A stretch of DNA of 32,000 nucleotides from assembly GCA_025839675.1 (NCBI GenBank), contig CP104013.1:3390001-3422000 (forward strand), written 5' to 3'. Within the stretch, counting starts at the first letter, position 1. Every line of letters starts with the position of its first letter. Shown here one piece after another: positions 5,896-31,232 of the stretch. Origin of the DNA: Candidatus Lokiarchaeum ossiferum. Lineage in GTDB: Archaea > Asgardarchaeota > Lokiarchaeia > Sigyniarchaeales > Promethearchaeaceae. Under the pieces are notes generated by a model. The model made no database searches. It was not told the DNA's origin and saw only the letters and a list, made by a program, of their open reading frames with translations. Position numbers and translations under genes: made by a program.

Positions 5896-6774
5896 TTAGT
5901 TATCTTTCTTTGAATCGTTGATTCCTAATTGGGTAACCATTTGTTTTTTCAAAGTTTGAATATCTCTGGATAAGCCAAAAGTATCAGCAAATTGATCTGT
6001 CGTAATAATTTCATGAGAACGACCTTTTTTATAGGTTTCAATAAACCCTCGATCGAGGAGAAACTTAACGTGATCATAAGCTCCCGAACCTCGAATTTTT
6101 ACAAGAGTTGACTTTAAAATCGGTTGTTTCAATGCAATGATTGTCAATGTTTTTAAATGCTTATCGGGGATCAATCCTCCGCTTGCAAATTTCTTCACAT
6201 TGGGAGTGTATTCGGGCTTGATTTGTAGGCTATATTTATCTTGGATTTGAACAATTTCCAATGCTGTAGAACGCATTAAATAGTCCATCGCTAATTCATT
6301 AAGAATTTCTTCCAATTCTCGTTTTTTTATCTCAGTTTTGATATTCAATTCTTCGACTGAAATGGGTCTTCCTGCAACAAACAATGCACCTTCAACAATA
6401 TTTTTTTTCTTGGATTGTTCATCCTCAGCATCGGACTTCAATTCATCGGATGAAATTGGTGATTCTTGTTCACTTTCCTCTTCTGATTCTCCTACTTCAT
6501 CCAAATCTTCTATTAAATCTTCTGATTCTCCTTCTTCAGCAGGAATATCACTTTCTGGCTCATTTATTTCTTGATCGTTTGATTTGATTCCATCTTCTTC
6601 AATTTCTTCTTCTTGATCTGAAGGTTCGCTAGGCTCATCGTCTGAATCTGATAGTTCATTTGTGTCTTCTTCATGAATTGCATCATCCAATTCATTATCC
6701 AAATCTTCCAAATCTGCCATGATTTCTGCTTCAATATCATCATTTTCTTCGTTCTTTTCTTCTTTTTCCGACAT
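5896..6774 (-). CDS. scpB: Segregation and condensation protein B (ScpB) with a roughly 125-aa acidic N-terminal extension
   Basis: 'VEGALFVAGRPISVEEL' and 'LKTLTIIALKQPILKSTLVKIRGSGAYDHVKFLLDRGFI' match the two ScpB winged-helix domains. The ORF track starts at TTG 6783. A GAGGT Shine-Dalgarno (6784-6788) abuts that TTG but lies 9 nt from ATG 6774, so ATG 6774 is preferred. Confidence 0.8.
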   Translation of the reverse strand: MSEKEEKNEENDDIEAEIMADLEDLDNELDDAIHEEDTNELSDSDDEPSEPSDQEEEIEEDGIKSNDQEINEPESDIPAEEGESEDLIEDLDEVGESEEESEQESPISSDELKSDAEDEQSKKKNIVEGALFVAGRPISVEELNIKTEIKKRELEEILNELAMDYLMRSTALEIVQIQDKYSLQIKPEYTPNVKKFASGGLIPDKHLKTLTIIALKQPILKSTLVKIRGSGAYDHVKFLLDRGFIETYKKGRSHEIITTDQFADTFGLSRDIQTLKKQMVTQLGINDSKKDN

Positions 6775-6783
6775 ATTAATCAA

Positions 6784-6788
6784 ACCTC
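6784..6788 (-). promoter_or_regulatory. Shine-Dalgarno (GAGGT) for scpB
   Basis: The minus strand reads TAAAAATGAGGTTTGATTAATATG. The site lies between the scpA stop and the scpB ATG. Confidence 0.55.
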
Positions 6789-6792
6789 ATTT

Positions 6793-7803
6793 TTAAAAAC
6801 TAATTCCTGTTTTATCGGTTAATAAAATATCTATATCACTTCGCATCGTTTCTTGATGTAATTTTACTTTGTTTAATGACGCTAAAAATAACATCTCTTC
6901 AAATCGCTGAATATATGCGACTTTTTTCTCAAAAATTGTTTGTTCAGTGTTTTTATAGATGAGTTCCTTGAAATACTTCATTGGGATTATTTCATCTTTA
7001 AAATCTTCTAATTGGATTATCTCTTTCACACGAATATGAGTTTTTTTTAACCGATCTTCGATAGTTTCAGATTTTCCAGTAATATGTTTTAATATTTCGG
7101 CTGGAAGTTTCCCTTTTCCGCGTTTTTTTACTTTTACTTGCTTCTTTGCTTCCTTTGTTTCTCTCCGGATTCTCAATTTTTCGCGTTTTTGCATCGTTTC
7201 AATAATTGCTCTCCGCATTGCTCCAAATAGTTCATCTGACGTCGCAATTTTTCGACTTTCACGAATTGGTTGTGATATTGCTTTGGGTACTTCCCTTCTC
7301 ATCCGTTCCCGAACAATTTCTTTCTGAATTTTTTCTTCTTCATGGATTACTCCAGTAATCTTTTGATGATAAAATTTCGCAGAAGAGTAGATTGCTAACC
7401 CAGAAATTCGAAAATCAATGAGATCTTCCTGCAACATTCTATCAGTAAAATCCTCAATCAGTTTGCTCAAATCAAATTGGGAAAATTCTACATTCTTAGC
7501 AAGATCAGGATCCAATAAGCTACGCCATGGTTCGCTTAACCACCATTTTCCAGATTTAATTAAAGCATCTTCATCTTCTGCACTGATTTCTTCTTCTTCA
7601 ATCTCTTCTCCAATAGTTATGACTTCTACCTCTTTAATTTCAGGTTCAACTTTTACTTTTGAGGTTTTCTTCCTTTTCTTAACTGGTTTTGATGATTCTT
7701 TCGAGGCTGATTTTTTGGGGGATTTCCCCCCTATCTTCAGTGTTGTTTTTTTTTTTGTAGTTTTCCGAGAGGTTTTTTTCGTTGTCTTCTTTTTTGCGAC
7801 CAT
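6793..7803 (-). CDS. scpA: Kleisin ScpA with a roughly 50-aa lysine-rich N-terminal tail
   Basis: 336-aa ORF. 'DLIDFRISGLAIYSSAKFYHQK' matches the archaeal ScpA '..DLRISG.ALLAAS.LLR.K' segment, and a C-terminal winged-helix-like end is present. It sits between smc and scpB with 11-nt and 9-nt gaps. Confidence 0.8.
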   Translation of the reverse strand: MVAKKKTTKKTSRKTTKKKTTLKIGGKSPKKSASKESSKPVKKRKKTSKVKVEPEIKEVEVITIGEEIEEEEISAEDEDALIKSGKWWLSEPWRSLLDPDLAKNVEFSQFDLSKLIEDFTDRMLQEDLIDFRISGLAIYSSAKFYHQKITGVIHEEEKIQKEIVRERMRREVPKAISQPIRESRKIATSDELFGAMRRAIIETMQKREKLRIRRETKEAKKQVKVKKRGKGKLPAEILKHITGKSETIEDRLKKTHIRVKEIIQLEDFKDEIIPMKYFKELIYKNTEQTIFEKKVAYIQRFEEMLFLASLNKVKLHQETMRSDIDILLTDKTGISF

Positions 7804-7808
7804 TTTAT

Positions 7809-7816
7809 CTCCTCCT
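7809..7816 (-). promoter_or_regulatory. Strong Shine-Dalgarno (AGGAGGAG) for scpA, overlapping the smc stop codon
   Basis: The minus strand reads TAGGAGGAGATAAAATG, with a 5-nt spacer to the scpA ATG at 7803. Confidence 0.7.
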
Positions 7817-10800
7817 AATCATCATCTTCATCATTATCTACTACTATCGGTTTATCAAGATCTTCTTCATCGGTACCTTCAATTGCGGCACCAAAATCAT
7901 CACGATCTTTTTCTTCTTCGAGATCAACAGTAAAAATATCGGTTATACCATCATTCATAGCAACCCCATAAATCCTGTCGCTGTTGGTTATATTTTCTTC
8001 CCTGTGGCTAATGACTAAAAATTGTGCTTGGGCAGCATATTCTTTGATAACCATTGAAACACGATATACATTTGGTCCATCCAACGCAGCATCAATTTCG
8101 TCCATAATATAAAATGGAGCGGGATAAAAATTCTGGACAGCAAAAATAAAGGAAAGTGCAACTAAAGTTTTTTCTCCTCCACTTAATATCGTTAAGGAAG
8201 AGATTTTTTTACCTCTCGGTCGGGCTTCAATATTAATCCCTGCTTCAAAAGGATGAGCGGGATTCTCTAAAATCATTTTTGCAGATCCTCCAGGGCTTAA
8301 TTGTTGGAAAACATTGGAAAATACGCGATTGATTTCATGATAAGCTTTCATAAAATTCCTAGTTTTCTCCAATTCGATACGATCAATTGAATCTAAGATT
8401 GCCTTACGTTCCCTTTGCAATGTTTGCCGGCGCATATCAATTTCATCCCATCGTTCCCGAACTACTTCATATTCTTCAATAGACTTCAAGTTTACAGGTT
8501 CTAATGCCGTTTTTTCGTTCGTTGCTTTTGCTATAGCTTGATTTAAAGATGCTTCTGCAAGATCATCGGTTACTGGTGGAAGAGTTCCATAATCCTTCGA
8601 TTTTTCAAATAATTCATCTATACGTTCTTCTAATACTATTTTTCGCGTTTCTAAATTATTAAATTTCGCACTATTTCTGGAGAGATCGGAATTAAGATCA
8701 CTTAATTCTTCTTGCATTCCCTTTTGTTTTTGCCATGAATCAGATTTCTGAGATTGTAATTCGGATAATTGATCTAACTTCTCTGAACGTTCAAGCTCCA
8801 ATTTTCCAATGTTCTCTATAATTTCCTTGATTTTTTCTTCCAAATCTGCAATTGCATCTCCAAGCTCACCCATTTCATTTTTTAAGTCATCAATTTCTTC
8901 TGCCCGGTTTTGCATTTGTTTCTGTTTATCACGCGTTTTTTCCAAATTATTCTTTTCATTACTAAGTTGCTTAATTGTATTGCGCAAAATCTTTTCTTTT
9001 TCTTCTAATTCTTTCCGTTCTGCTTGAATTTTTTCAATTTCAGCATCTTCTGCTACGATTTTTTCTTCTTGAGTGGTTATTTCTCCTTCAAGAACTTCTA
9101 TTTGTTTTGAATTATCTTCAATTTTCGTTTGAGCTTCTTCATTTTCATGGTTTAAAGTTTCAATATCTGAAATTAACTTTTGAACGTTTTCCAAATCCTT
9201 CAATCGTGCTGTTACTTCTTTAAGTTTCTCATTTTCCTCGTCTATTTGAATTTGAAGCTCATTTCGTTTTTCATCAGCAATATCACGTTCTCCTTTGACA
9301 GTTTTTGTATTCTCTACCACTGCTTGAACATCTGCTTTTGCAGTATCGCTACTTTTCTCTAAATCATTTATAGTTTTCTTTTTAGCTTCAATATCCTCTG
9401 AAAGACTGACCTGATCTTGAGTGGCATTTTCAATATCATCTAAGATTCTTTTCACACTGCCTAAATCATTGAGATCTGCTTGAACTTGGGCTAATTCAGA
9501 AGTATGCTTATCAATAGTTTCTTGTAATTCTTTTGTAATTTTCCAGTAATTTTCAGAAAATTTCTTAATTCCATCGAGATCTTGGGTGAGTTTCTTAATT
9601 TCGTTCTCATTGAGCTCAATTTGCTCTGATTTTTCTTGATTTTCTTTATTTCCCTTCTCAACCCGTTTGGAATTTTCTTCAATTGATTTTGTAAGATTTC
9701 CGATTAGTATTTTAAGTTCGCTTTGATCTTTGTTCTTTTGCTCTAATTGGGTCTCAATCTTTGTCAAATTATTCTTTAGTTCTGCAAGTTTGTTCTGATC
9801 TCGTTGTATTCCTTCATTTAATCCATCTAGTGCTTTGTATACTTCCGATGTATCAGAAATAGCGATCGCTTGGAGAGCTAATCGGATTGAATCAAATTTG
9901 TTTACAAAATCTGCAATGAATCCATCAAAATTCGATGTGGATTCAAGTAAGGCTTCTTCACTTGCCTCTTTTACTACTTCATTTAATTGCTGAATGGGTT
10001 GATCTGAGTTTTCAATCAAGAAATTTAAAGTCGTGACAACTTGTTCTAACTCTTCTTTGATTTCTTGAGCCTGTTTTCCTGCTATCTCATTTATTGTACC
10101 CAACATGTCTGTTATATCCATGACAAAACTACGTAGCACGCTTTCAGATTCGTCAATTGCAACTTGACTGGCATTTTGTATATCAGATTTAACATTTCCA
10201 GCGGATCGATCGATATTTTCCATTAAACTTTGAAGCGTTCCTAACACACTTTGCAATTCACTGGAATTTTGTTCTTGCTCAGTTTCTTTTTTATCAATTT
10301 GTTCTTGCAATATTTTCCTTTCTTCTTGAAGTTGGGTCAGTTTATTTTGAATGTTCTGAGCTTGCTTGTCAAATTTCGATTTTTCTGAAGTCAGTGCCTC
10401 AATTTCCTTTTGGACATTTGCCATTTTGAGATCATTAGCACTTTTCTCACGTTCAGCAGTTTTTAATTCATTTTGAGCATTTTTTAATTCAACTTTTAGC
10501 CCAGATAATCTCTTTTCGAAATCTGCTAATTCACTTTCTAAAGTTCTACGTTTATGCTCCAATCCTTCCTTTTTGTTTTCTGATCGCTTCTGATCATCAT
10601 TAGCTTTTTTCAAGCTTTCTTTCGCATTTTTTAAGTTTTCCAAAATTTCTTTTTCAGATTTCTTCAATTCGTTGATCTGATCTTCAACTTTCTTTCCCTT
10701 GGTTAATCGATCGTATTCTTTTTGCATTTTATTCTTCCGTGTCTCGAGATCTTCAATCTGTTTTTCGATCATCTTGATTTCTGCACCTGTGGAAGAAATT

Positions 10801-12332
10801 GCCGCTTGAATATCTGCCAATTTTTGATTTGCTTTATCACGAGATTTTTCTAGTTTAAGTAATTCTTTATCAATCTCTTTTTGACGTTTTTTCTGCTCTT
10901 CAATTTTACTTTTTAAATCATTAATGGTTTTAGAAATTTCATTAGCTTCTTCTGAAGTAGTTTTAATTGCTTCTTCAACACTTTCGCCTTCTTTCTTTAA
11001 TTTGGCCAAATCACTCTCTAATTTTTCTAACTTCTTTGTATTCTTTTTTATTGACTTTTCCAATAACTTGATTTCTGTCGATAAAGCTTTTATTTCTTGA
11101 TGAACCTTTGAAATTTCTTTATTAATTTCTGTCTTTATCTTATTTATTTCCGCAATTGATGCTTCTTTTCCCTTTTGCTGAGCAGTATTTTCTTCAATCA
11201 ATTCACTTGTCTCATCAATTTCTTTTTCTTTAACATCAATTTCTTGGTTGGTTAAAGTAACTAAATCTGTATAGGTCTGTCCTTCTTCCAATTTATCTTG
11301 CAATTCTTCAAGTTTGATAATATTTTGCTCTAAACGCTTCAGGTTATCTTTGCTTGCTTGTAATGTAGCTTCTTTTGCCGATAAATCTGATTTCTGGGAG
11401 GTTAAAGTCTCATCAAGCTTTGATTTTTCCTCTTCCATGCCAGCAATATCCTCTTCGATCCCTTTTAGAAGCAAGGATTCAGATTCTATCCGATCTTTTT
11501 GGCGTTTAATTTTTCCTTCTAATTCTTCAATAACGAGTTGAGTTGATTCAATATCTGCTTCAACTTCTTCTTCCTCTTGGCGTAAATTGTGAATTTTAAG
11601 GGCAATTAGTTGAGCATTATGGAGTTTTACTAGATTATCTAATTCTTTCCATCGAAGAGCATCATTTTTTTCTTTTTCAACTTTTTTTAATTGGGCGCTA
11701 ACTTCTTTGAAAATTGCTTCAAACTGACCTAAATCCTTATCTGCTTTCTCCAATTCCTTTAAAGTTTGTTCTTTCATCCGATCATACTTAGAAAGACCAA
11801 TCAGTTCTTCAATAAATTCACGTCGTTTATTGGTGTTCATGTGAGTCAATTCAACAATACGACCTTGAAGAATAAATTGATTAGAGCCATCGGGATCAAT
11901 GTTTGCTTGTGCTAAGGCATTTAAAATTGTCTCTCGTGTTGCCTTTTTTCCTTGAATTTTATATCCACTGGTTCCTTTTTTCCGAATCCATCGGGATATC
12001 GAATATTCACTCGCATCACTTGGAAAAACTTTATCCCGATTGTCAAAAGTAATCTCAACTTCTGCTTTTGTTGCGGGTTTTTTAGTTTTTGATCCGGCAA
12101 AAATCAAATCGGTTAAACTCTTCGCACGCATTGTTTTTTTTGACATTCGGCCAAGTGCGAAGCATAATGCATCAATAACATTGGATTTACCATTTCCATT
12201 TGGTCCAATAATGCATGTAAAGCCCTTAGCTAAAGAAACACTGACGGTTCGGTTTCCAAAACTCTTGAAACCACTCATTGTAACACGTTTTATATAGGTC
12301 AAAGTTGTAACTTTCTCCTCTTTCTTAGGCAA
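7815..12332 (-). CDS. smc: SMC-family chromosome ATPase with unusually long arms and a non-canonical central domain
   Basis: 1505-aa ORF. The N-terminal head has 'YIKRVTMSGFKSFG' and Walker A 'GPNGNGKSNVIDAL'. The C-terminal head has the signature 'LSGGEKTLVALSFIFA' and Walker B/D-loop 'PFYIMDEIDAALD'. Long heptad-rich arms separate them, and scpA-scpB follow in the same operon. The start is TTG 12332, or TTG 12302 giving 'MTYIKRV..'. Confidence 0.85.
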   Translation of the reverse strand: MPKKEEKVTTLTYIKRVTMSGFKSFGNRTVSVSLAKGFTCIIGPNGNGKSNVIDALCFALGRMSKKTMRAKSLTDLIFAGSKTKKPATKAEVEITFDNRDKVFPSDASEYSISRWIRKKGTSGYKIQGKKATRETILNALAQANIDPDGSNQFILQGRIVELTHMNTNKRREFIEELIGLSKYDRMKEQTLKELEKADKDLGQFEAIFKEVSAQLKKVEKEKNDALRWKELDNLVKLHNAQLIALKIHNLRQEEEEVEADIESTQLVIEELEGKIKRQKDRIESESLLLKGIEEDIAGMEEEKSKLDETLTSQKSDLSAKEATLQASKDNLKRLEQNIIKLEELQDKLEEGQTYTDLVTLTNQEIDVKEKEIDETSELIEENTAQQKGKEASIAEINKIKTEINKEISKVHQEIKALSTEIKLLEKSIKKNTKKLEKLESDLAKLKKEGESVEEAIKTTSEEANEISKTINDLKSKIEEQKKRQKEIDKELLKLEKSRDKANQKLADIQAAISSTGAEIKMIEKQIEDLETRKNKMQKEYDRLTKGKKVEDQINELKKSEKEILENLKNAKESLKKANDDQKRSENKKEGLEHKRRTLESELADFEKRLSGLKVELKNAQNELKTAEREKSANDLKMANVQKEIEALTSEKSKFDKQAQNIQNKLTQLQEERKILQEQIDKKETEQEQNSSELQSVLGTLQSLMENIDRSAGNVKSDIQNASQVAIDESESVLRSFVMDITDMLGTINEIAGKQAQEIKEELEQVVTTLNFLIENSDQPIQQLNEVVKEASEEALLESTSNFDGFIADFVNKFDSIRLALQAIAISDTSEVYKALDGLNEGIQRDQNKLAELKNNLTKIETQLEQKNKDQSELKILIGNLTKSIEENSKRVEKGNKENQEKSEQIELNENEIKKLTQDLDGIKKFSENYWKITKELQETIDKHTSELAQVQADLNDLGSVKRILDDIENATQDQVSLSEDIEAKKKTINDLEKSSDTAKADVQAVVENTKTVKGERDIADEKRNELQIQIDEENEKLKEVTARLKDLENVQKLISDIETLNHENEEAQTKIEDNSKQIEVLEGEITTQEEKIVAEDAEIEKIQAERKELEEKEKILRNTIKQLSNEKNNLEKTRDKQKQMQNRAEEIDDLKNEMGELGDAIADLEEKIKEIIENIGKLELERSEKLDQLSELQSQKSDSWQKQKGMQEELSDLNSDLSRNSAKFNNLETRKIVLEERIDELFEKSKDYGTLPPVTDDLAEASLNQAIAKATNEKTALEPVNLKSIEEYEVVRERWDEIDMRRQTLQRERKAILDSIDRIELEKTRNFMKAYHEINRVFSNVFQQLSPGGSAKMILENPAHPFEAGINIEARPRGKKISSLTILSGGEKTLVALSFIFAVQNFYPAPFYIMDEIDAALDGPNVYRVSMVIKEYAAQAQFLVISHREENITNSDRIYGVAMNDGITDIFTVDLEEEKDRDDFGAAIEGTDEEDLDKPIVVDNDEDDD
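9828..10265 (-). other. Central non-coiled region of SMC (about aa 690-835) occupying the hinge position
   Basis: The segment 'LQSLMENIDRSAGNV...FVMDITDMLGTINEIAG...FDGFIADFVNKFDSIRLALQAIAISD' breaks the charged heptad pattern. It lacks the glycine-rich hinge motifs and contains no CxxC. Confidence 0.5.
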
Positions 12333-17519: not shown

Positions 17520-20500
17520 ATGGGTCTCAAAGAGTTTTTTCAAGTTTTTAGTGTAAAAAATAGTCAAGGTATTGAAGTATCATATTCATTGCTTATATTC
17601 TTAACAATTGTATATATCGGAACAATTGTTGCTGGTTATTTCTTAATGTCCTCACAGGTTAAAATTGTCAAAAAAGAAATTTGGTCATATAAAGATACTC
17701 TAAAATGCATTGTTTTTGCTTTCTTTTTCGGAAGTGGCATTACTATAATAATTACTATGATGGCCACATTTGTCCTTAATAATACAGTAAATGGGCCTAA
17801 TCAAGGACAAGCTTTTTTCATTTTCATCCCGATGTTCTTTTGCCTAATTTTTATTACACTTTACCCTCTTTTAGAATTTCTATTCATGGCACATTCTGCG
17901 AATGATTTGTCCGTAACACCTACCCAAAAATTATTTGAAAACCTGATTAAAAAATTCAAGAAACCCACATCATATATAATAGCTTTACTGCTGTACATAT
18001 TTTGTATCCCAACTCCAATTTTAATAATGGTTCTTAGCGGCGTTGAGTTAGTAGTAGCTTGGATCAGTTGGGCATTATTATTTCCGATGTCGATGATTGT
18101 ATATTATGCCTCATTGGGATTTTCTGTAGGTCATGCTCTGTATTATTCACATATTGCTCATTTAGAACGATCAACCTTTCTACATTTTGATAACAGTAAT
18201 CGAGCTCTCAAAGAATTTTGGAGAAATCCATTTTTTTACATTATTTTTTTTGTCTTAAACTATATCTACGTCTATGAGCTATACAAAAGCTACAGCACAC
18301 TAAGTCATTTTAGTATAAATTACATTGAAAAAGCACCACTAATTAATTTTGATTGGTCCATTCCCATAGCACTTGTATTCGCTATTTCTGCGTATTTCAC
18401 TAGGTACTGGAAACGAAAAGTCAAAGTTTCGGCTCAATCGATTTTCTTTTCTGGGTTTTTAATTGCTGCAATAGGCATAAATGTATTAATTAATATTTTT
18501 ATCACATATAATGGAACAAGAGTTTTTGAGAGTATGTTTAAGCAGTGGGAATTCACATCCGTCTTATATGAAGCTAGAATTCCTGGTAGGGCTATCCTCA
18601 ATCATTCAAAGTTAAATTTAATTGGATCCATTGAAGAAGTAGGGTTATTCGTTATTATTTCATTTTTCTTCTTTATTCAGAAAGACCATAAACTCTATAA
18701 TGATGCCTTGGAAGGTGTAGTCACCGCTGCAGCCGATAAGTTTAATCCTATCCCTCCATTTAACATGTGTCGATATAAGAATTCTGAACAACGAAAATAT
18801 GCCAATCAAATCTTATTGACTATGTATGATAGAATTCCAATAAAATATGGCTATAATCTGACCCAAGATATTTTTAAAGATCCTTTACTGGATGCCATGT
18901 GTGATCCCAGTAATATTTACGCCCAACAAACCGGTAAGTTGATTTTTAACCAATTACTTCAAAATCACCCCAAAAAAACGCTTCCAATTATTTATGAAAA
19001 TATTGAATCCTCAAATTTTGATAAAGTTCAAATTATTCTTGAAAGTTTAATTTCTCATGGAGAAAATATTATTCCCTTCATAAAGATCAATAAATTTTAT
19101 ACATTGTTAACACACCCGAATTATAAATTGAGGAAAGCGGCCTTATCTTTCGTAAATGTATATTATCGAAGTTCTTATGCTGATATAAAAGAAATCTTTC
19201 CAAGTTCTGATCAAATTTCACAAATAATTCCTCTCTTAGAAGATGCAGATTATGAAATTGAAGCTGAATCTTTAGAATTTTTGAGTCACTATTCTAAAGA
19301 CCTTGATGCCTCCATCTTTGCTAGTCGTTTAGAACATCCTGTTCCAAAAATACGAAGTATTGCCGCCAGTATATCGAGTCAAATAACTGGAGATGATTTG
19401 TCTTCAGCAACTATTCCAAAATTAATAGAAATGCTTGAAAGTCCTAATAATGATGTAAAAATTGCTGCTATGAATGCTCTAGGCAAAATAGGTGATTTTG
19501 ATTCGAATAAAATTCCGCTTCAACCCTTTAAAACTTCCTTGGTAGATAACAATGAAAAAATAAGGAAAGCAGCCGTTGCAGGTATAGTTTCATATCTGAA
19601 AGAGAAGCCCCTTGGGATAAAACCTGAATATATTTTGCGCATCCTATCTGATTCTCCTTCAGATATTCAGGAATCCTTGCTAACAATCTTAGGTTATATA
19701 TGGAAACAAGCCCCAGCGAAAGTCTTTCCTGTTTTAATTACATTTCTAAGAAACGAAGATACAAAAATCAAAAAAATCTCTCAACAAACTCTTGTTGCAA
19801 TGGGGTATCAAGATCCAAAGACGGTTACTTTGAAATTGATTGTAGAGCAAGAAACAGAAAGTTACATTCGTAGAGGAAAAATCTCAGATACTATAATTCG
19901 AATTTCAGCTAAATATTGGAAAAGAGTTATTCCTATTATAATGACCAAGTTAGAATCCCCGGAAGAACATATAAGACTTAATTGTGCAACTGTACTTAAC
20001 GCAATATCTGAATTACATCCTGAAGATATCCCTGCTGATAAATTTATTTCATTGTGGATAAATGAATCTTCCTCAAAAATGAAAAAAGAGATGAGTCCTT
20101 GTATTGGAAATATCTCCTCAACTGCTTTCGAAGTTATTAAAGCAAATTTCTCACAAATAAAAAATACTTTTGTTAAGTCAAATTCAACTGTAAAACTTGC
20201 CATTGTCAAAATGTATATAACTCTTGCACAAAAATCACCATCGCTCATAAAATTTGATTTGATCAAAGATTTGACTAAGGATAAAGATCCAAATATCCGT
20301 GAATTGTCAATGGAACTTATTGAAATTATGGGATCAGTCGATCCCCAAAAATCTATCAAATTTCTGATGAAAGGTTTGAATGACCCAGAATGGCCTGTAA
20401 AAAATGCTGCAGCGGATTCAATAGCACATTTTGGAGAAAAAGTTGAAAATGAAACTGTGATTAATGAAATTAAAAAGATGCTTTATGAAAAAGAAAAGTG

Positions 20501-20969
20501 GACAAGATTAAAAGGATTGGAAGTAATCACCTCAATCACAGAAAAACGTAATACCGTTTTGACGATCGATGAAATTTTAGCTTTAAATTCAAGTTCTGAT
20601 GATGTTAATTTTCGAAAAGGCTTTGCAAAGTTACTTGGTCTTACCGCGGTCCAAGATTTTGACAAATTTTTCCCTGAAATTTTAAAACTCCTGCAAGATA
20701 CAGATGAATCCGTTAGGAAAGGAATGATTTCTGGAGTTGTCTCTCTTTCGAGCAAAATTGAAGTAAATCTACTTGTTCCAAAACTTCTCTTCTATTTAAC
20801 AGAAGAAACTCCTCTTGTTTTGCAACAAAGTATCGCTCTTGCTCTAAAACGTATAGTAAAATATGAAAAAAAGGAATTGAAAGATCGAGTTATTGCTTTA
20901 CTTAAAAAACGAGCCCTTGTGAGTCAAGACGAAATAATATCTTCCGTATTATCAGACTTGAAATACTAA
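17520..20969 (+). CDS. Polytopic membrane protein (about 8-9 TM helices) fused to a long HEAT/ARM-repeat solenoid
   Basis: 1149-aa ORF. The first roughly 390 aa contain hydrophobic helices, for example 'SLLIFLTIVYIGTIVAGYFLM' and 'AFFIFIPMFFCLIFITLYPLL'. From about aa 430 there are recurrent HEAT_PBS-type units: 'NNDVKIAAMNALGKIGD', 'NEKIRKAAVAGIVS', 'DPNIRELSMELIEIMG', 'EWPVKNAAADSIAHFGE' and 'DESVRKGMISGVVSL'. Confidence 0.7.
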   Translation: MGLKEFFQVFSVKNSQGIEVSYSLLIFLTIVYIGTIVAGYFLMSSQVKIVKKEIWSYKDTLKCIVFAFFFGSGITIIITMMATFVLNNTVNGPNQGQAFFIFIPMFFCLIFITLYPLLEFLFMAHSANDLSVTPTQKLFENLIKKFKKPTSYIIALLLYIFCIPTPILIMVLSGVELVVAWISWALLFPMSMIVYYASLGFSVGHALYYSHIAHLERSTFLHFDNSNRALKEFWRNPFFYIIFFVLNYIYVYELYKSYSTLSHFSINYIEKAPLINFDWSIPIALVFAISAYFTRYWKRKVKVSAQSIFFSGFLIAAIGINVLINIFITYNGTRVFESMFKQWEFTSVLYEARIPGRAILNHSKLNLIGSIEEVGLFVIISFFFFIQKDHKLYNDALEGVVTAAADKFNPIPPFNMCRYKNSEQRKYANQILLTMYDRIPIKYGYNLTQDIFKDPLLDAMCDPSNIYAQQTGKLIFNQLLQNHPKKTLPIIYENIESSNFDKVQIILESLISHGENIIPFIKINKFYTLLTHPNYKLRKAALSFVNVYYRSSYADIKEIFPSSDQISQIIPLLEDADYEIEAESLEFLSHYSKDLDASIFASRLEHPVPKIRSIAASISSQITGDDLSSATIPKLIEMLESPNNDVKIAAMNALGKIGDFDSNKIPLQPFKTSLVDNNEKIRKAAVAGIVSYLKEKPLGIKPEYILRILSDSPSDIQESLLTILGYIWKQAPAKVFPVLITFLRNEDTKIKKISQQTLVAMGYQDPKTVTLKLIVEQETESYIRRGKISDTIIRISAKYWKRVIPIIMTKLESPEEHIRLNCATVLNAISELHPEDIPADKFISLWINESSSKMKKEMSPCIGNISSTAFEVIKANFSQIKNTFVKSNSTVKLAIVKMYITLAQKSPSLIKFDLIKDLTKDKDPNIRELSMELIEIMGSVDPQKSIKFLMKGLNDPEWPVKNAAADSIAHFGEKVENETVINEIKKMLYEKEKWTRLKGLEVITSITEKRNTVLTIDEILALNSSSDDVNFRKGFAKLLGLTAVQDFDKFFPEILKLLQDTDESVRKGMISGVVSLSSKIEVNLLVPKLLFYLTEETPLVLQQSIALALKRIVKYEKKELKDRVIALLKKRALVSQDEIISSVLSDLKY

Positions 20970-20974
20970 TATCA

Positions 20975-22582
20975 TTAGGTCAAATTTAATAAAAATTGAA
21001 GATAGTGTTCTTTTTTTGAGGAATTTAAAGTTCCTTTTTTTTCCAACATATCAAAACCTTTTTTGATCTCATTTTTATAAACAGGAGCTCGCTCACAACA
21101 AAATTCAAAATTGCTTCTTAATTGCATATTAATGTCTAATATCTTCGAAACTTCTTTTTCAAAGGCAATATACTCGGGAGTGAGGGGGATTCGTTCTAAA
21201 TTAGAAAAAGTGTATTCAGATGGGAAGATTATTTCTATACGTTCATCTTCCTCCTCGTCTTCAAATATAGCTATACCGATTGGAACATAAATATTCATTG
21301 TGGGATTGGTTAAATGTGTAATATTATCATCTATTTGCCAATTACGCAATTTTATTTCATCAAATTTGCATCTTTTTATTTTGTCATCAATAATATTAGT
21401 AATTTCAAGAAAAATATTTGAGAGATTATCTAATGTTGTTTGAATTTCCTCTATTTTTTGATTCCGTTCATTTTTCAACACTTGTAATTTATTTTTCTGG
21501 TTTTGTTGGCGATCTATTAGTTCAGAGTTCAATAAGTGAATTCGTTCTTCCGCGGATAAGTTTGTGTTCTCCAAATCTTTCCTAATCTTGTTAATTTTCG
21601 ATGATATGTTATCTAGTTGGGTTTCTGATTCTTCTAGAGCTGTCCGAATATGGGCAACATTCTGATATGCTTTAACTACTACGGTTCCAACTGAATTTTT
21701 TGCTTTAAGTATATCGGTTTGCAGAAAATAACTATTTCGCTTATGAATATCCTCAAAGACCAGATCGATACCTTTAAACATTTTCCCAATTTTTTCAATA
21801 ATATTTTTTTGTTCTTGGAGAATCCAGACATCCACATTATCTTTCGCTTTATCTAATGTTTTTTGAATATCAGTTTCATCAATTTGGTGAGCTTTATCTA
21901 ATTTACTTTGATAAATTTCTTGAATATCCTTTTTTTGAACTAAAAGATCAACTTTCCATCGAGACATTGGTTTTTCAATCATATCCTTTAAAGATTTCCA
22001 CCTATCTCTAATTCCACGGACCATTCGCAAAGTTTCTATCCATTCTTGTCCAAAATTTATTGAATCATCAAAAGTATAAATATTTTCTAAACATGAAAAA
22101 TCATTTGAATTAAAATTAGTCAACTTTGGAACTATTTTACCAATACCTTTCAAAAGATCTGGATCAAATAATCCATTAATCTCTTGAGAGAGAATTTCTT
22201 CTGAATGGTTATTATCACTTTCAGTATCGAGTTCATTTTCAAGAAAAATCCTCTCTTTGAATTCAATAATATTTTTAACAGTTTCTAGTTTTGCAAAATT
22301 ATCCATTTTTGAATTTCGAAGAACATGACCAATTTGGGCTGTTTTTGGAGCATTATTTATGTTCATATTCAATTTACTAACTCCCACTTTATCAATCATC
22401 AACTTAAAATTTGGTTCTGCTTGGATGAATATAACTGGCCAAAGAATTTGAGTCATTTTCATTAAAGTCTCATCAGGATTCATTCGATCAATAAGTTGAG
22501 CAAAATTTAATGCAATTGATTCTTCAAATGATATTTCTTGATGAGATCGATGTTCAATATTGAAGGGTAAACGGATCGACAT
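20975..22582 (-). CDS. Hypothetical protein with a central coiled coil; no family recognised
   Basis: 535-aa ORF with clean coding character. The N-terminal region of about 110 aa is mixed alpha/beta ('ILWPVIFIQAEPNFKLMIDKVG'). A heptad-rich stretch covers about aa 230-400. Towards the C-terminus there is an acidic patch 'FEDEEEDERIEIIF'. It is transcribed divergently from 22695. Confidence 0.6.
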   Translation of the reverse strand: MSIRLPFNIEHRSHQEISFEESIALNFAQLIDRMNPDETLMKMTQILWPVIFIQAEPNFKLMIDKVGVSKLNMNINNAPKTAQIGHVLRNSKMDNFAKLETVKNIIEFKERIFLENELDTESDNNHSEEILSQEINGLFDPDLLKGIGKIVPKLTNFNSNDFSCLENIYTFDDSINFGQEWIETLRMVRGIRDRWKSLKDMIEKPMSRWKVDLLVQKKDIQEIYQSKLDKAHQIDETDIQKTLDKAKDNVDVWILQEQKNIIEKIGKMFKGIDLVFEDIHKRNSYFLQTDILKAKNSVGTVVVKAYQNVAHIRTALEESETQLDNISSKINKIRKDLENTNLSAEERIHLLNSELIDRQQNQKNKLQVLKNERNQKIEEIQTTLDNLSNIFLEITNIIDDKIKRCKFDEIKLRNWQIDDNITHLTNPTMNIYVPIGIAIFEDEEEDERIEIIFPSEYTFSNLERIPLTPEYIAFEKEVSKILDINMQLRSNFEFCCERAPVYKNEIKKGFDMLEKKGTLNSSKKEHYLQFLLNLT

Positions 22583-22694
22583 ATTCGCATGTACAAATAG
22601 TAGTTTAGATCTTTAGAGGCTTTTGCCTTGAAATATCAAAAGTGGAACTTCACCAAAATCTTTTAATAGTGTAAAAATGGATCAAATTGTGTAA

Positions 22695-23558
22695 ATGACT
22701 GCTCCAAGTCAAGAATTTGAAGTTGAAGTTACTTGCCCCATACCCGAGTGCAAAAAAACAAAAATTGTAAAAATCCCTTCATATCTTTTTGAAAACAAGA
22801 AAATGGGAACAATTAAAGTACAAATTCACGCAGATATATGTTGTGAACATGAATTTATTATTTTTGTTGGAAAAATGAAAGGAAAGCCTCCTAGGGTCAG
22901 AGCGTATGAAATGGTGGATTTAGCAATAGATCTATCAAAGATAATAAAAACTGGCAAAAATGATCAAGTGTTCTTGAAAGATCTATTAAAAAAATATGGT
23001 GATTATGCAGTTAGCTCATGTCTTCATGCTTTGATGTTAAATTGTCACATTATTTTTCTTCGAACTGAACATGATACCAATCAATCAAATCAAATTACAA
23101 ATCTTCTGAATAGTTTTATCCCATCTCAACATCCAAGTGATAATATTACAATATCACATATTTTAGAATCCGAATATAAAAAGGCTAAGATTTCCAATGC
23201 CTTGGTTGTTAACCCTCAAGGAGTTATTGCTAACACTCCATGGTCAGATATTTCTTTAGATATTGAAAAACATCTTATCCAAGAATCTTTAGAAATCCTA
23301 GATGATTCGCTACAAGCAATGATCCTAAAACAGGAATTGGAACTTTTATTTAACAAGTCCCAATTTATTGTCAACATAATCAAGAAAGATGAAATTTTTG
23401 AAGAAGATTTAAATCAGAAAATTTCACAAGAGTATGGAAATACGATATCCAAGTCTGAAATGAAATTACTTAAGCAAATCGTCGAATTTCGATTTAAAGG
23501 TAATCTCAAAAAAATCAAAATTCGATCCTTTAGTAAATTGAAGGAAGGTCTCTGGTAA
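22695..23558 (+). CDS. Hypothetical Zn-ribbon protein with a possible DENN/folliculin-like core
   Basis: 287-aa ORF. The N-terminal 'CPIPEC...ICCEHEF' supplies four potential Zn ligands. The centre reads 'SSCLHALMLNCHIIFLRTEHD..ITNLLNSFIP'. The C-terminus is helical ('SKSEMKLLKQIVEFRF'). The CDS call is confident, but the fold assignment is speculative (about 0.3). Confidence 0.6.
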   Translation: MTAPSQEFEVEVTCPIPECKKTKIVKIPSYLFENKKMGTIKVQIHADICCEHEFIIFVGKMKGKPPRVRAYEMVDLAIDLSKIIKTGKNDQVFLKDLLKKYGDYAVSSCLHALMLNCHIIFLRTEHDTNQSNQITNLLNSFIPSQHPSDNITISHILESEYKKAKISNALVVNPQGVIANTPWSDISLDIEKHLIQESLEILDDSLQAMILKQELELLFNKSQFIVNIIKKDEIFEEDLNQKISQEYGNTISKSEMKLLKQIVEFRFKGNLKKIKIRSFSKLKEGLW

Positions 23559-23605
23559 TAAAACCAAAATTTTTTTGATTTAATTAACTAGTACTTTTGT
23601 TAAAT

Positions 23606-24550
23606 ATGGAAAAGAAATCAGAGATCGATATTCAAAAAGCAATACGAGAAGGAATTATAGAACTTAAAAAAACCTACGAAAAGCAAGAAAATATCAAAGT
23701 TATTGAAGAAAGAGCCACTATTGCTTCCAGTCTGGGTGTTCTTTTATGGAAAGATAATCAATCACAAGATGCTAAGAAATATTTTCTTCTCGCTCTTGGG
23801 GAATATGAAAAATTAAACGATGATTTTAAAATTGCGACTACTCAAGGAACTTTGGGTTCCTTATTTTTAGAATTGGGTGAATATGCTCTATCGCAAAAGT
23901 ATAATGAAGATGCATATGAATATTGGAAAGGCACCAATTTTCTAAATGAGCGGATTGCATGCCTTCAAAATTTAGGAATAATTTTATTACGAAATCAAGA
24001 CGAGTTGAAAGCTTCTGAATATATACTAGAAGGGCTTAGGATGGCTATATCTTTGCAAGATGAAAATCAATTTGCAATTACTATTCAAATTTTGTTAGAA
24101 CATTACGAAAAACTCAAAAGATTTGATATGTTACTTGAGCTGAAAAAGAAAGCTCTCGAATTTTGGACACAAATGGATTTGCCACAAAGGAAATTTAAAA
24201 CTTTAATCGATTTAGGTGTAATTTCTCAACTAATGGAAGATTTTTCTGCAGCAATAACATTTTTCAAACCGGCATTCAATATTGGCTATCATGCTGGAGA
24301 TCTGGAAAAAATGTTTCTAGCCGAAGGATTTTTAGCAGAAACATATCTGAAACTTAGGGAAATTGAGAAAGCAAAAAACACATACTTACAAGCCTTTAAA
24401 TTGGCTGTGTACATCAATGTTGAGAAAGATTATAAGCAACATGTTGAAGCCATGCGGTTGGCTTTACTCTCGCTTGGATATACTATCGAAGAATTAGTAA
24501 AAGAGGGTCAAAAAGCTTTGGAAGAAGCTCAATTTGACCAAAACCAATAA
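23606..24550 (+). CDS. TPR-repeat protein
   Basis: About 314 aa from ATG 23606 (the ORF track starts at TTG 23597). It has successive 34-40-aa helix pairs with TPR spacing: 'SSLGVLLWKDNQSQDAKKYFLLALGEYEKLND', 'GTLGSLFLELGEYALSQKYNEDAYEYW' and 'QNLGIILLRNQDELKASEYILEGLRMA'. Confidence 0.7.
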   Translation: MEKKSEIDIQKAIREGIIELKKTYEKQENIKVIEERATIASSLGVLLWKDNQSQDAKKYFLLALGEYEKLNDDFKIATTQGTLGSLFLELGEYALSQKYNEDAYEYWKGTNFLNERIACLQNLGIILLRNQDELKASEYILEGLRMAISLQDENQFAITIQILLEHYEKLKRFDMLLELKKKALEFWTQMDLPQRKFKTLIDLGVISQLMEDFSAAITFFKPAFNIGYHAGDLEKMFLAEGFLAETYLKLREIEKAKNTYLQAFKLAVYINVEKDYKQHVEAMRLALLSLGYTIEELVKEGQKALEEAQFDQNQ

Positions 24551-30275: not shown

Positions 30276-31232
30276 CTAACGATGTTTTATCATTTCCTCT
30301 AATTCTTTCAACTTATCAGATACCACTTGTGAAGATCCAAAAAGTGTCGGAAATATATTATTGTTTTTATCTGGACTTATGACAATTAGCATCCCATAAT
30401 CATTGATTTCTTTGAGAATAATAAATCGAGTTTCTGTGGTAAAAATATAGGAATCCAAATACATATGTTCCTGCTTAGATTGCTGGAAGGCTTCTTGAAT
30501 TGATTCAAAGATCGAATCAATATTTGATTCCATCAGTGCGATATCCAATGGGATGTATTTTAAAGGATCTGCAGGAATATCCCCTAATGTTGATGTAGTG
30601 ATTAATCCATCTGGACGGTTTAACAAGATCAATTCACAATTAATGTCCGCTTTTATGGATTCTAACATTTCCCGAATATTTTTCCTTTTCTGGAGTTCAA
30701 GAACAGAATTTTCCAAAGCATTATCAAGAATTTCAATCAATCGATGTTGAGCCGTGCCATGTTTCACAGAAACGGGGGTGAATTCTAATAAGTGGAGATA
30801 TTTTGGGTCAATTTCCAACCGCAATAATTCAAACAGCTTGTTCGGATCTGCTCCTTCAACATCAGTTTTATTCATCAAAACATAAATCCGTTTAACTTGG
30901 GGAGATAATTCGACAATATTTTCTACAAATTGTTTGAAGAGCTTTGCTTGTTCTGGGTGCAATTCTGAACAATCCTCCATGAATATGGGAATTGATACTT
31001 CAGAAAATAAACTTTCTCGTTGGTTTTCAGAAAAATATCGTTTAAGATATTTATCTTGCCCGCCAGAATCCCATGCATTGATTTCAAGCAATCCCCGAAA
31101 GAGATAGTTTTCTCTGCTAATTCCTCTAGTAGGTGGGATGTTTATCAGTTGCAAAAATGTATAGCCTTCACAGGTTGATTTCAGTAATGAAGTTTTCCCA
31201 ACAGCAGCATTTCCGAATACAAGCGTCTTCAC
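30276..31232 (-). CDS. Rag/Gtr1-family small GTPase with C-terminal roadblock domain
   Basis: 318-aa ORF with a GTG start. G1 is 'GNAAVGKTS', G2 is 'PPTRGI', G3 is 'WDSGGQDKYLKRYFSENQRESLFSEVSIPIF' (compare Rag/Gtr1 'WDCGGQDTFMENYF..Q.D.IF..V.VLI.VF'), and G4 is 'NKTD'. The C-terminal roughly 140 aa ('ELILLNRPDGLITTST', 'RFIILKEINDYGMLIVISPD') align with the Rag roadblock domain. Confidence 0.8.
   Translation of the reverse strand: MKTLVFGNAAVGKTSLLKSTCEGYTFLQLINIPPTRGISRENYLFRGLLEINAWDSGGQDKYLKRYFSENQRESLFSEVSIPIFMEDCSELHPEQAKLFKQFVENIVELSPQVKRIYVLMNKTDVEGADPNKLFELLRLEIDPKYLHLLEFTPVSVKHGTAQHRLIEILDNALENSVLELQKRKNIREMLESIKADINCELILLNRPDGLITTSTLGDIPADPLKYIPLDIALMESNIDSIFESIQEAFQQSKQEHMYLDSYIFTTETRFIILKEINDYGMLIVISPDKNNNIFPTLFGSSQVVSDKLKELEEMIKHR

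Follow-up and report, generated by a model that had tools for sequence, protein, structure and literature searches.

In this study, we analysed a stretch of 32,000 nucleotides (nt) from Candidatus Lokiarchaeum ossiferum (GenBank assembly GCA_025839675.1, contig CP104013.1, positions 3,390,001 to 3,422,000), hereafter called the window, with the open reading frame (ORF) at 22695-23558 of the + strand as the subject. The ORF encodes 287 aa, as had been read from the sequence, and its product was 100% identical to NEF87_002894 of the same organism, whose public label is "hypothetical protein". ORF reading, identity, alignment, a predicted model, and a Foldseek search were combined to describe it as the gene for a putative Zn-ribbon and DENN-fold protein. 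A TATA-like box (ttttaata; 22661-22668, + strand) was read 27 nt upstream of the ATG, inside a divergent intergenic region of 112 nt, which suggests that NEF87_002894 is transcribed from a promoter of its own into an mRNA with a short leader or none. On the same strand, a run of seven T (23570-23576) begins 12 nt past the stop codon and is a possible archaeal terminator signal; it is followed by a TATA-like ttaattaa before the next gene, which encodes a TPR protein. The features of the protein described below are all encoded on the + strand.

The original prediction had placed a four-ligand Cys/His motif (CPIPEC ... CCEH) within β-strand-like sequence at the start of the protein, and both conservation and the predicted model confirmed it. 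In the alignment of 21 orthologs, C14, P15, C19, C50, and H52 were invariant. Furthermore, across 120 diverse relatives, whose alignment averaged 20% column identity, the four ligands were kept in 96-100% of the sequences (C14 and C19 in 118 each, C50 in all 120, and H52 in 115). This conservation is far beyond chance; since the ligands are near-universal in such divergent relatives, the motif is real and under strong selection. The first knuckle, C14-P15-x3-C19 (22734-22751), is located in the β1-β2 hairpin and appears as CPxC in most relatives, the family pattern being CPx(1-4)C. The second knuckle, C49-C50-E-H52 (22839-22850), is located in the β3-β4 hairpin and has C50 and H52 as the conserved ligands (CxH). 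The two hairpins of the predicted model thus present a two-knuckle, four-ligand zinc-ribbon arrangement, from which we infer metal binding at a structural Cys3-His zinc site. DSSP assignment of the model (E7-13, E22-28, H29-32, E39-44, E54-59, and E67-73) delimited this N-terminal domain as a five-stranded β-sheet of residues 7-73 (22713-22913), which occupies the position of the longin/u-DENN domain in DENN proteins.

The AlphaFold2 model built from the ortholog alignment had a mean predicted local distance difference test (pLDDT) score of 84.9 and a predicted template modelling (pTM) score of 0.83. In this model, the sheet of residues 7-73 is followed by a low-confidence linker, an α/β domain (residues 94-200), a helical domain (residues 204-265), and a terminal helix (residues 277-286). 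The α/β domain (22974-23294) is core-DENN-like according to the model, the Foldseek matches, and the register of an HHalign alignment described below, and it holds the central segment SSCLHALMLNCHIIFLRTEHDTNQSNQITNLLNSFIP that had attracted attention in the first place. This segment had been read as a buried hydrophobic strand followed by an 'hhxxhhP'-type motif. Indeed, a helix (residues 103-115), a buried strand (residues 118-123, HIIFLR), and a helix (residues 131-140) were predicted there, followed by P143; this proline was invariant in the orthologs and the central hydrophobic pattern was kept family-wide. The helices of residues 204-231, 236-247, and 253-265 form an all-helical domain (23304-23489) that is d-DENN-like in the model and in the Foldseek matches, and the C-terminus was helical as expected from the sequence. 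Outside the zinc ligands, conservation among polar or structural residues of the DENN-like part was highest at E191 (103 of the 120 relatives; 23265-23267), D203 (79; 23301-23303), and P182 (78; 23238-23240), which are candidates for an interaction surface.

Subsequently, the model was compared with 350,542 PDB chains using Foldseek. Five matches were obtained at E≤0.001, and every one was a DENN-module protein. The top match was DENND1B-Rab35 (3tw8, two chains) with a best E of 5.7e-5 and a probability of 1.00. The set was completed by two chains of DENND1A (6ekk) and by chain 6ulg_L, the FLCN subunit of the FLCN-FNIP2-Rag-Ragulator complex, with a probability of 1.00 and an E of 2.2e-4. DENND10 (8p0v_M) ranked next with a probability of 0.90, and all remaining matches were below 0.4. 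A replicate model was made of the Thorarchaeota paralog P0172, which is 18-24% identical to the orthologs of NEF87_002894. It showed the elements in the same order, including the N-terminal sheet (pLDDT 79.9, pTM 0.64), and its top eight PDB matches were all DENND1A/B or FLCN chains (probability 0.57-0.96, with ≤0.33 below those), among them the isolated FLCN DENN domain (3v42_B, TMt 0.47). Of the tripartite DENN organisation, the core α/β domain and then the all-helical d-DENN domain were found in the predicted structure, and no other fold was comparable. The DENN fold was assigned because the two predicted structures agree, with no support at the sequence level. Taken together, the two models suggest that the C-terminal two-thirds of the protein very probably adopts a DENN-type fold; the DENN- or folliculin-like core that had been recognised by eye therefore holds at the level of predicted structure, where AlphaFold and Foldseek indicated the α/β DENN core type.

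The best matches, DENND1A and DENND1B (connecdenn), are a Rab35 guanine nucleotide exchange factor (GEF) module. Their alignments spanned the whole protein (346-392 columns), and hence the N-domain, c-DENN, and d-DENN are in the same order as in DENND1A/B. NEF87_002894 differs from them in that its N-domain is a zinc-stabilised sheet without longin helices, in its low identity of about 9-10%, and in having no Rab-like gene adjacent. The global root-mean-square deviation from DENND1A/B was 17-20 Å, which indicates that the relative domain arrangement differs or that the alignment is loose.

We also examined the size and distribution of the family. Twenty further orthologs with 40-82% identity and 277-300 aa were obtained from Loki-type (Promethearchaeota) assemblies. 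A profile search covering 1.84 billion representatives of 50% identity clusters yielded 547 clusters at E≤1e-3, mostly of about 280 aa, of which 197 reached E≤1e-10. The named members carry Loki-/Promethearchaeota, Thorarchaeota, and Odinarchaeota labels. Every relative retrieved was labelled "hypothetical", and the family is recognised by no Pfam model.

Two branches of paralogs were found beside small GTPases. Members of the Thor/Odin-labelled branch are encoded convergently with a Ras/Arf/Roc GTPase of 167-185 aa (Ras E about 1e-21), and in four assemblies the two genes are 5 nt apart or overlap. Two genes of about 105 aa, whose products look like small membrane proteins, follow the GTPase gene. 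The conserved unit of the GTPase and these two genes is located at 10918-12191 of locus L006, 6520-7854 of L008, and 6295-7490 of L020. Roadblock/LAMTOR-like proteins were considered for the two genes and set aside; by eye, the products look like small multi-pass membrane proteins, and no match to the Pfam Roadblock model was observed. In the long branch, whose members have 477-496 aa with an N-terminal extension of about 210 aa, the gene is divergent from that of a fusion of 311 aa, which joins Roadblock (residues 8-97) to a Ras-like GTPase (Ras E=5e-49). This arrangement was observed in L023 and L025 and was kept in L026 and L029, which are 62% identical (L023 4045-6723, L026 4682-7461, and L029 2132-5035). 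A family hidden Markov model (HMM) centred on NEF87_002894 matched the proteins beside the fusion with E=5.6e-44 to 1e-41. The extension itself appeared Roadblock-like by eye and had no Pfam match even at E≤10. In addition, tandem paralogs are present in L018 (4159-4983 and 6001-6852; the same in L019) with a 160-aa gene between them, about 1.9 kb from an ESCRT cluster (Snf7, Vps4, ESCRT-II, and EAP30); these tandem paralogs could be a heterodimeric pair like FLCN-FNIP.

DENN and longin-DENN regulators had been taken as eukaryotic inventions in the original prediction. This view is outdated: DENN proteins of Asgard archaea, with expanded paralog families in Loki, were reported by Liu et al. 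(2020, bioRxiv 10.1101/2020.10.19.343400; Nature 2021), and DENN domains are now routinely listed among the Asgard eukaryotic signature proteins. Those proteins have in common with the present family the same organisms, a fold visible only to sensitive methods, expanded Loki paralogs, and non-eukaryotic architectures. According to the same work, most Asgard archaea share an operon of "LAMTOR1-like Roadblock, Rab-like GTPase, DENN". Its Roadblock and Rab/Ras-like GTPase parts are reproduced beside the long branch, where the proteins appear to be the same ones judging from the wording of the source. Unlike the operon so described, the branch of NEF87_002894 is without GTPase and Roadblock neighbours, which it lost or never possessed, and has a context of HEAT, 535-aa, and TPR proteins instead.

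From these results, we lean towards the reading that NEF87_002894 is a compact DENN-fold regulator or adaptor of a Ras-superfamily GTPase encoded elsewhere, with a structural Cys3-His zinc site. The protein would be a compact Asgard member of the DENN family that consists of a zinc-held five-stranded sheet, a core-DENN-like domain, and a d-DENN-like domain with a Trp-terminal tail. Eukaryotic DENN modules and the paralogs of the protein suggest by analogy that it probably binds a Ras-superfamily small GTPase and regulates the nucleotide state or localisation of that GTPase, in a GEF-like, a GTPase-activating protein (GAP)-like, or a scaffold role. The partner would be a Rab/Ras/Arf-like GTPase whose gene lies elsewhere in the genome, the conserved Trp-terminal tail may have a docking role, and in the Lokiarchaeum/Harpocratesius clade the protein would possibly work with a TPR protein, a 535-aa protein, and a membrane-anchored HEAT/adaptin-like protein. 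That the protein binds zinc, that it binds and acts on a GTPase, and which partners it has are what we infer for it.

Several results weigh against this reading. First, profile searches against the DENN and folliculin families gave no significant match. At E≤1, no Pfam match to DENN, uDENN, dDENN, Folliculin, or Folliculin_C was observed for the protein, its lone Pfam signal being a sub-threshold DUF match, and neither the protein nor the family profile matched any PDB sequence. Folliculin_C was touched weakly by 2 of the 120 relatives (best E=0.0023, below the cut-off). When the family was aligned by HHalign with a profile of human FLCN, whose query sequence was checked against 6ulg_L, the probability was 0.24% with E=0.26, which is not significant; likewise, the FLCN HMM, a shallow tetrapod-based profile, matched none of 180 family members. 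The FLCN homologs retrieved were all from tetrapods with at least 83% identity, and these two negatives are weak evidence because a profile so shallow had little power. The single best, non-significant HHalign alignment paired residues 93-144 with FLCN 348-397, which is the register proposed in the original prediction. Second, the longin/u-DENN reference topology is a β-β-α-β-β-β-α-α sandwich, of which the N-terminal domain has the five strands in the right order; longin helices are absent, since helix 1 comprises just 4 residues and no C-terminal longin helices were assignable in the models of NEF87_002894 and the Thor paralog. Hence, we do not call this domain a longin, and on the models it is best described as a zinc-ribbon-like sheet in place of the longin domain. 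Third, one paper considers the DENN fold widespread across life, and consequently fold similarity alone need not mean shared function. Finally, no adjacent GTPase was found at the locus of NEF87_002894 itself or in three other paralog contexts (P0100, P0043, and P0039), one of which is that of the tandem paralogs near the ESCRT cluster.

The neighbouring genes bear on an alternative in which the protein does not act directly on a GTPase. Immediately downstream is the gene of the TPR protein (23597-24550, + strand; 317 aa as listed; Pfam TPR_12 E=3.7e-18). Its listed start is TTG at 23597, and the true start looks like the ATG at 23606 (MEKK...), after the T run and ttaattaa. In every Lokiarchaeum/Harpocratesius-type locus, this gene directly followed the NEF87_002894 ortholog, which it overlapped in L002. 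Divergently transcribed from NEF87_002894 is the gene of a 535-aa protein (20975-22582, - strand), which is coiled-coil-rich by eye, is syntenic in the same clade, and had no Pfam or PDB-sequence match; it is well conserved, at 43-49% identity, and many residues of its terminal regions are invariant. Two genes upstream of NEF87_002894, and kept there in the clade, is the gene of a 1149-aa protein (17520-20969, + strand), in which an N-terminal hydrophobic and, by eye, apparently multi-pass membrane region is followed by HEAT/adaptin-N-like repeats (HEAT_2 E=1.2e-27; Adaptin_N 40.7 bits with a cut-off of 37). It would be unusual for an adaptin-like solenoid to be membrane-anchored.

The order GINS(Sld5)-like, 1149-aa TM-HEAT, 535-aa (- strand), NEF87_002894, and TPR was kept in the Lokiarchaeum- and Harpocratesius-type loci with 42-82% identity, and a radical-SAM gene and two large predicted surface-protein genes continued it in most of these loci. 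The block was not kept in Promethearchaeum (MK-D1 and two metagenome-assembled genomes) or in CR_4. The closest Promethearchaeum homolog has a different tail and lies beside an SMC-like gene, which is divergent and encodes 1197 aa in MK-D1. In the homolog of MK-D1 (Promethearchaeum syntrophicum, L015 9986-10843, 36% identity), a polybasic stretch ending ...STIYFF replaces KLKEGLW.

The C-terminal tail KKIKIRSFSKLKEGLW (23508-23555) emerged from the ortholog alignment, where the terminal KIKIRSFSKLKEGLW was nearly invariant, and had been missed before. Among full-length relatives, 32 of 119 had tails ending in L/I/F-W, including members of other family branches. An amphipathic membrane-targeting helix was also considered for the tail and was dropped, the hydrophobic moment being ordinary (0.33, rank 82 of 274 sequence windows).

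TPR domains commonly bind C-terminal peptides, as Hop does with EEVD and PEX5 with SKL. The protein might accordingly be a clade-specific adaptor, in which the DENN body would serve as a scaffold and the C-terminal peptide (...KLKEGLW-COOH) would dock in a TPR groove, tying the TPR protein to the 535-aa and HEAT/adaptin-like proteins. Functional links of NEF87_002894 with the TPR protein and with the 535-aa protein would follow from the conserved order of HEAT, 535-aa, NEF87_002894, and TPR genes in 11 of 11 Lokiarchaeum/Harpocratesius-type loci, and the overlap in L002 points in the same direction, as does a tail that stays nearly invariant while the body falls to 40% identity. However, the block lies within wider housekeeping synteny (SMC, ScpB, and GINS), and its order may reflect relatedness only. 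Moreover, CR_4 keeps the KLKEGLW tail though it has no TPR, HEAT, or 535-aa neighbours, tails ending in W are also seen in branches with a different gene neighbourhood, and in L. ossiferum the T run and TATA-like box between NEF87_002894 and the TPR gene suggest separate transcription. We consider an adaptor role without direct GTPase action unlikely. Within the housekeeping synteny, the - strand cluster at 5896-12332 consists of genes for SMC (1505 aa), a 336-aa protein without Pfam match, and ScpB; the 336-aa middle gene is in the position expected for kleisin.

Another explanation is that the protein is a zinc-ribbon nucleic-acid-binding or regulatory protein, and that its DENN likeness arises by convergence or as a prediction artefact. 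Consistent with this, 18 of the 120 members weakly matched Zn_ribbon_Brz, the model of a zinc ribbon from transcription regulators, with a best E of 0.0066 that is below the cut-off, a sequence-level DENN signal is lacking, and the TM-scores are low. On the other hand, models from sequences about 20% identical converged on a match list of DENN proteins only, Pfam detected no helix-turn-helix or other nucleic-acid-binding domain in the 287-aa form, and two paralog branches have conserved small-GTPase adjacency. We regard this explanation as very unlikely, and the DENN-fold regulator or adaptor of a GTPase remains the reading that we prefer.

FLCN (yeast Lst7) is a subunit of the FLCN-FNIP GAP for RagC/D, and the original prediction had proposed that the protein acts on a Rag-like GTPase of the window. 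Pfam established that the gene at 30276-31232 (- strand) encodes a Rag-family (Gtr1/RagA-like) GTPase of 318 aa (Gtr1_RagA E=9.7e-18, 64.9 bits with a cut-off of 22), and the evidence obtained does not tie this proposed partner to NEF87_002894. It lies on the opposite strand, four genes and 6.7 kb away, with the radical-SAM gene and two large predicted surface-protein genes between. At the same position, a Rag-like GTPase was found only in the 82%-identical relative L017 (17621-18577). The small-GTPase HMM detected none in 15 other ortholog loci, including L003, L010, and L011, whose sequence runs well beyond the equivalent place, and the gene was missing at that place in all syntenic loci at ≤53% identity. 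A metagenome scan with the Rag-like GTPase as the query gave no relatives. Its flanks are a large predicted surface-protein gene on one side and a small gene followed by BcrAD/HGD-type genes on the other, and it has this placement only in Lokiarchaeum-level relatives. The same junction in L003 is without the GTPase, which points to a recent insertion or loss. According to Liu et al. (2020, bioRxiv 10.1101/2020.10.19.343400), small GTPases are numerous in Asgard genomes; by a rough estimate, it is therefore no surprise to find one within about 7 kb. Coupling in the genome to a Rag-family GTPase, as expected of a folliculin-type protein, was not observed.

The family resembles FLCN in several respects. 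FLCN/Lst7 are alone among DENN proteins in having a putative split Cys/His zinc module, whose first half is at the extreme N-terminus. From our reading of the FLCN sequence, this half is in the first β-hairpin, as is the first knuckle of the Asgard family. At the start of β5, R69 (22899-22901) is part of the family motif V-R-G-Y-E and is a candidate counterpart of R164, the arginine finger of FLCN, in A-R-G-F-Q; both conform to [AV]-R-G-[FY]-[QE]. The isolated FLCN DENN domain is, moreover, one of the structure matches. Such likenesses provide leads and do not amount to tests. The ligand pattern is HxCx2H...Cx2C in FLCN and CPx(1-4)C...CxH in the present family. Furthermore, NEF87_002894 has 287 aa as compared with 579 aa of FLCN and is without the GP motif, the long insertions, and an FNIP-like partner gene nearby, and its arginine is not invariant: R69 is Arg in 17 of the 21 orthologs, with V, K, or M in the remaining four, and in 87 of the 120 relatives. 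Asgard 'GAP longins' of the FLCN/SMCR8 type have been proposed as kin of the eukaryotic longin-type GAPs for Arf or Rag GTPases, and what is reported to set GAP longins (FLCN/SMCR8/NPRL2) apart is a GP motif ahead of strand 2 together with a conserved arginine finger (Traffic 2025, PMC12290439). In NEF87_002894 and the family consensus, no GP motif was found before β2; the β1-β2 loop reads C-P-x-x-x-C-K-K-T, so that this family differs from the Asgard GAP longins in having a zinc knuckle at that hairpin. Because the GP motif is absent, R69 is not invariant, and the ligand patterns differ, we did not file the protein as a folliculin-type GAP. Each GAP of that type forms an obligate heterodimer with another longin-DENN subunit (FNIP, C9orf72, or NPRL3).

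A folliculin-like GAP for the Rag-like GTPase, whose N-terminal domain would bring R69 as an arginine finger into the Rag nucleotide pocket as FLCN does with R164 for RagC/D, is highly improbable: although FLCN chains were among the top matches of both models, the N-terminal zinc module and the arginine motif are FLCN-like, and the 82%-identical relative also has the Rag gene nearby, the family HMM found no second member and hence no FNIP-like paralog in the 32-kb window, the paralog-adjacent GTPases are Ras/Rab-like (that of the long branch is 28% identical to the Rag-like protein over 126 residues only), and the GTPase of the DENN operon reported by Liu et al. is likewise non-Rag. The proposed action on the Rag-like GTPase was, accordingly, not supported.

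A more speculative and rather doubtful idea is that the Asgard Zn-ribbon-DENN family is the archaeal stock of folliculin/Lst7. The zinc module and the arginine of [AV]-R-G-[FY]-[QE] would then be shared from the ancestor, with the longin helices, the GP motif, and the specificity for Rag as later additions; NEF87_002894 would preserve the minimal, pre-longin state of a DENN regulator and work together with a membrane protein that is adaptin-like.

The finding does not overturn current views, as Asgard DENN proteins have been known since 2020/21 and NEF87_002894 is, by its predicted fold, a new and hitherto unannotated one. A family of about 550 sequence clusters with a predicted DENN fold behind a zinc site would add candidate small-GTPase regulators to the Asgard inventory. 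L. ossiferum is among the few cultured Asgard archaea, which makes biochemistry and localisation feasible. The zinc parallel with folliculin/Lst7 and the placement beside adaptin-like and TPR proteins may thus serve as testable leads on the pre-eukaryotic organisation of trafficking-type regulators.

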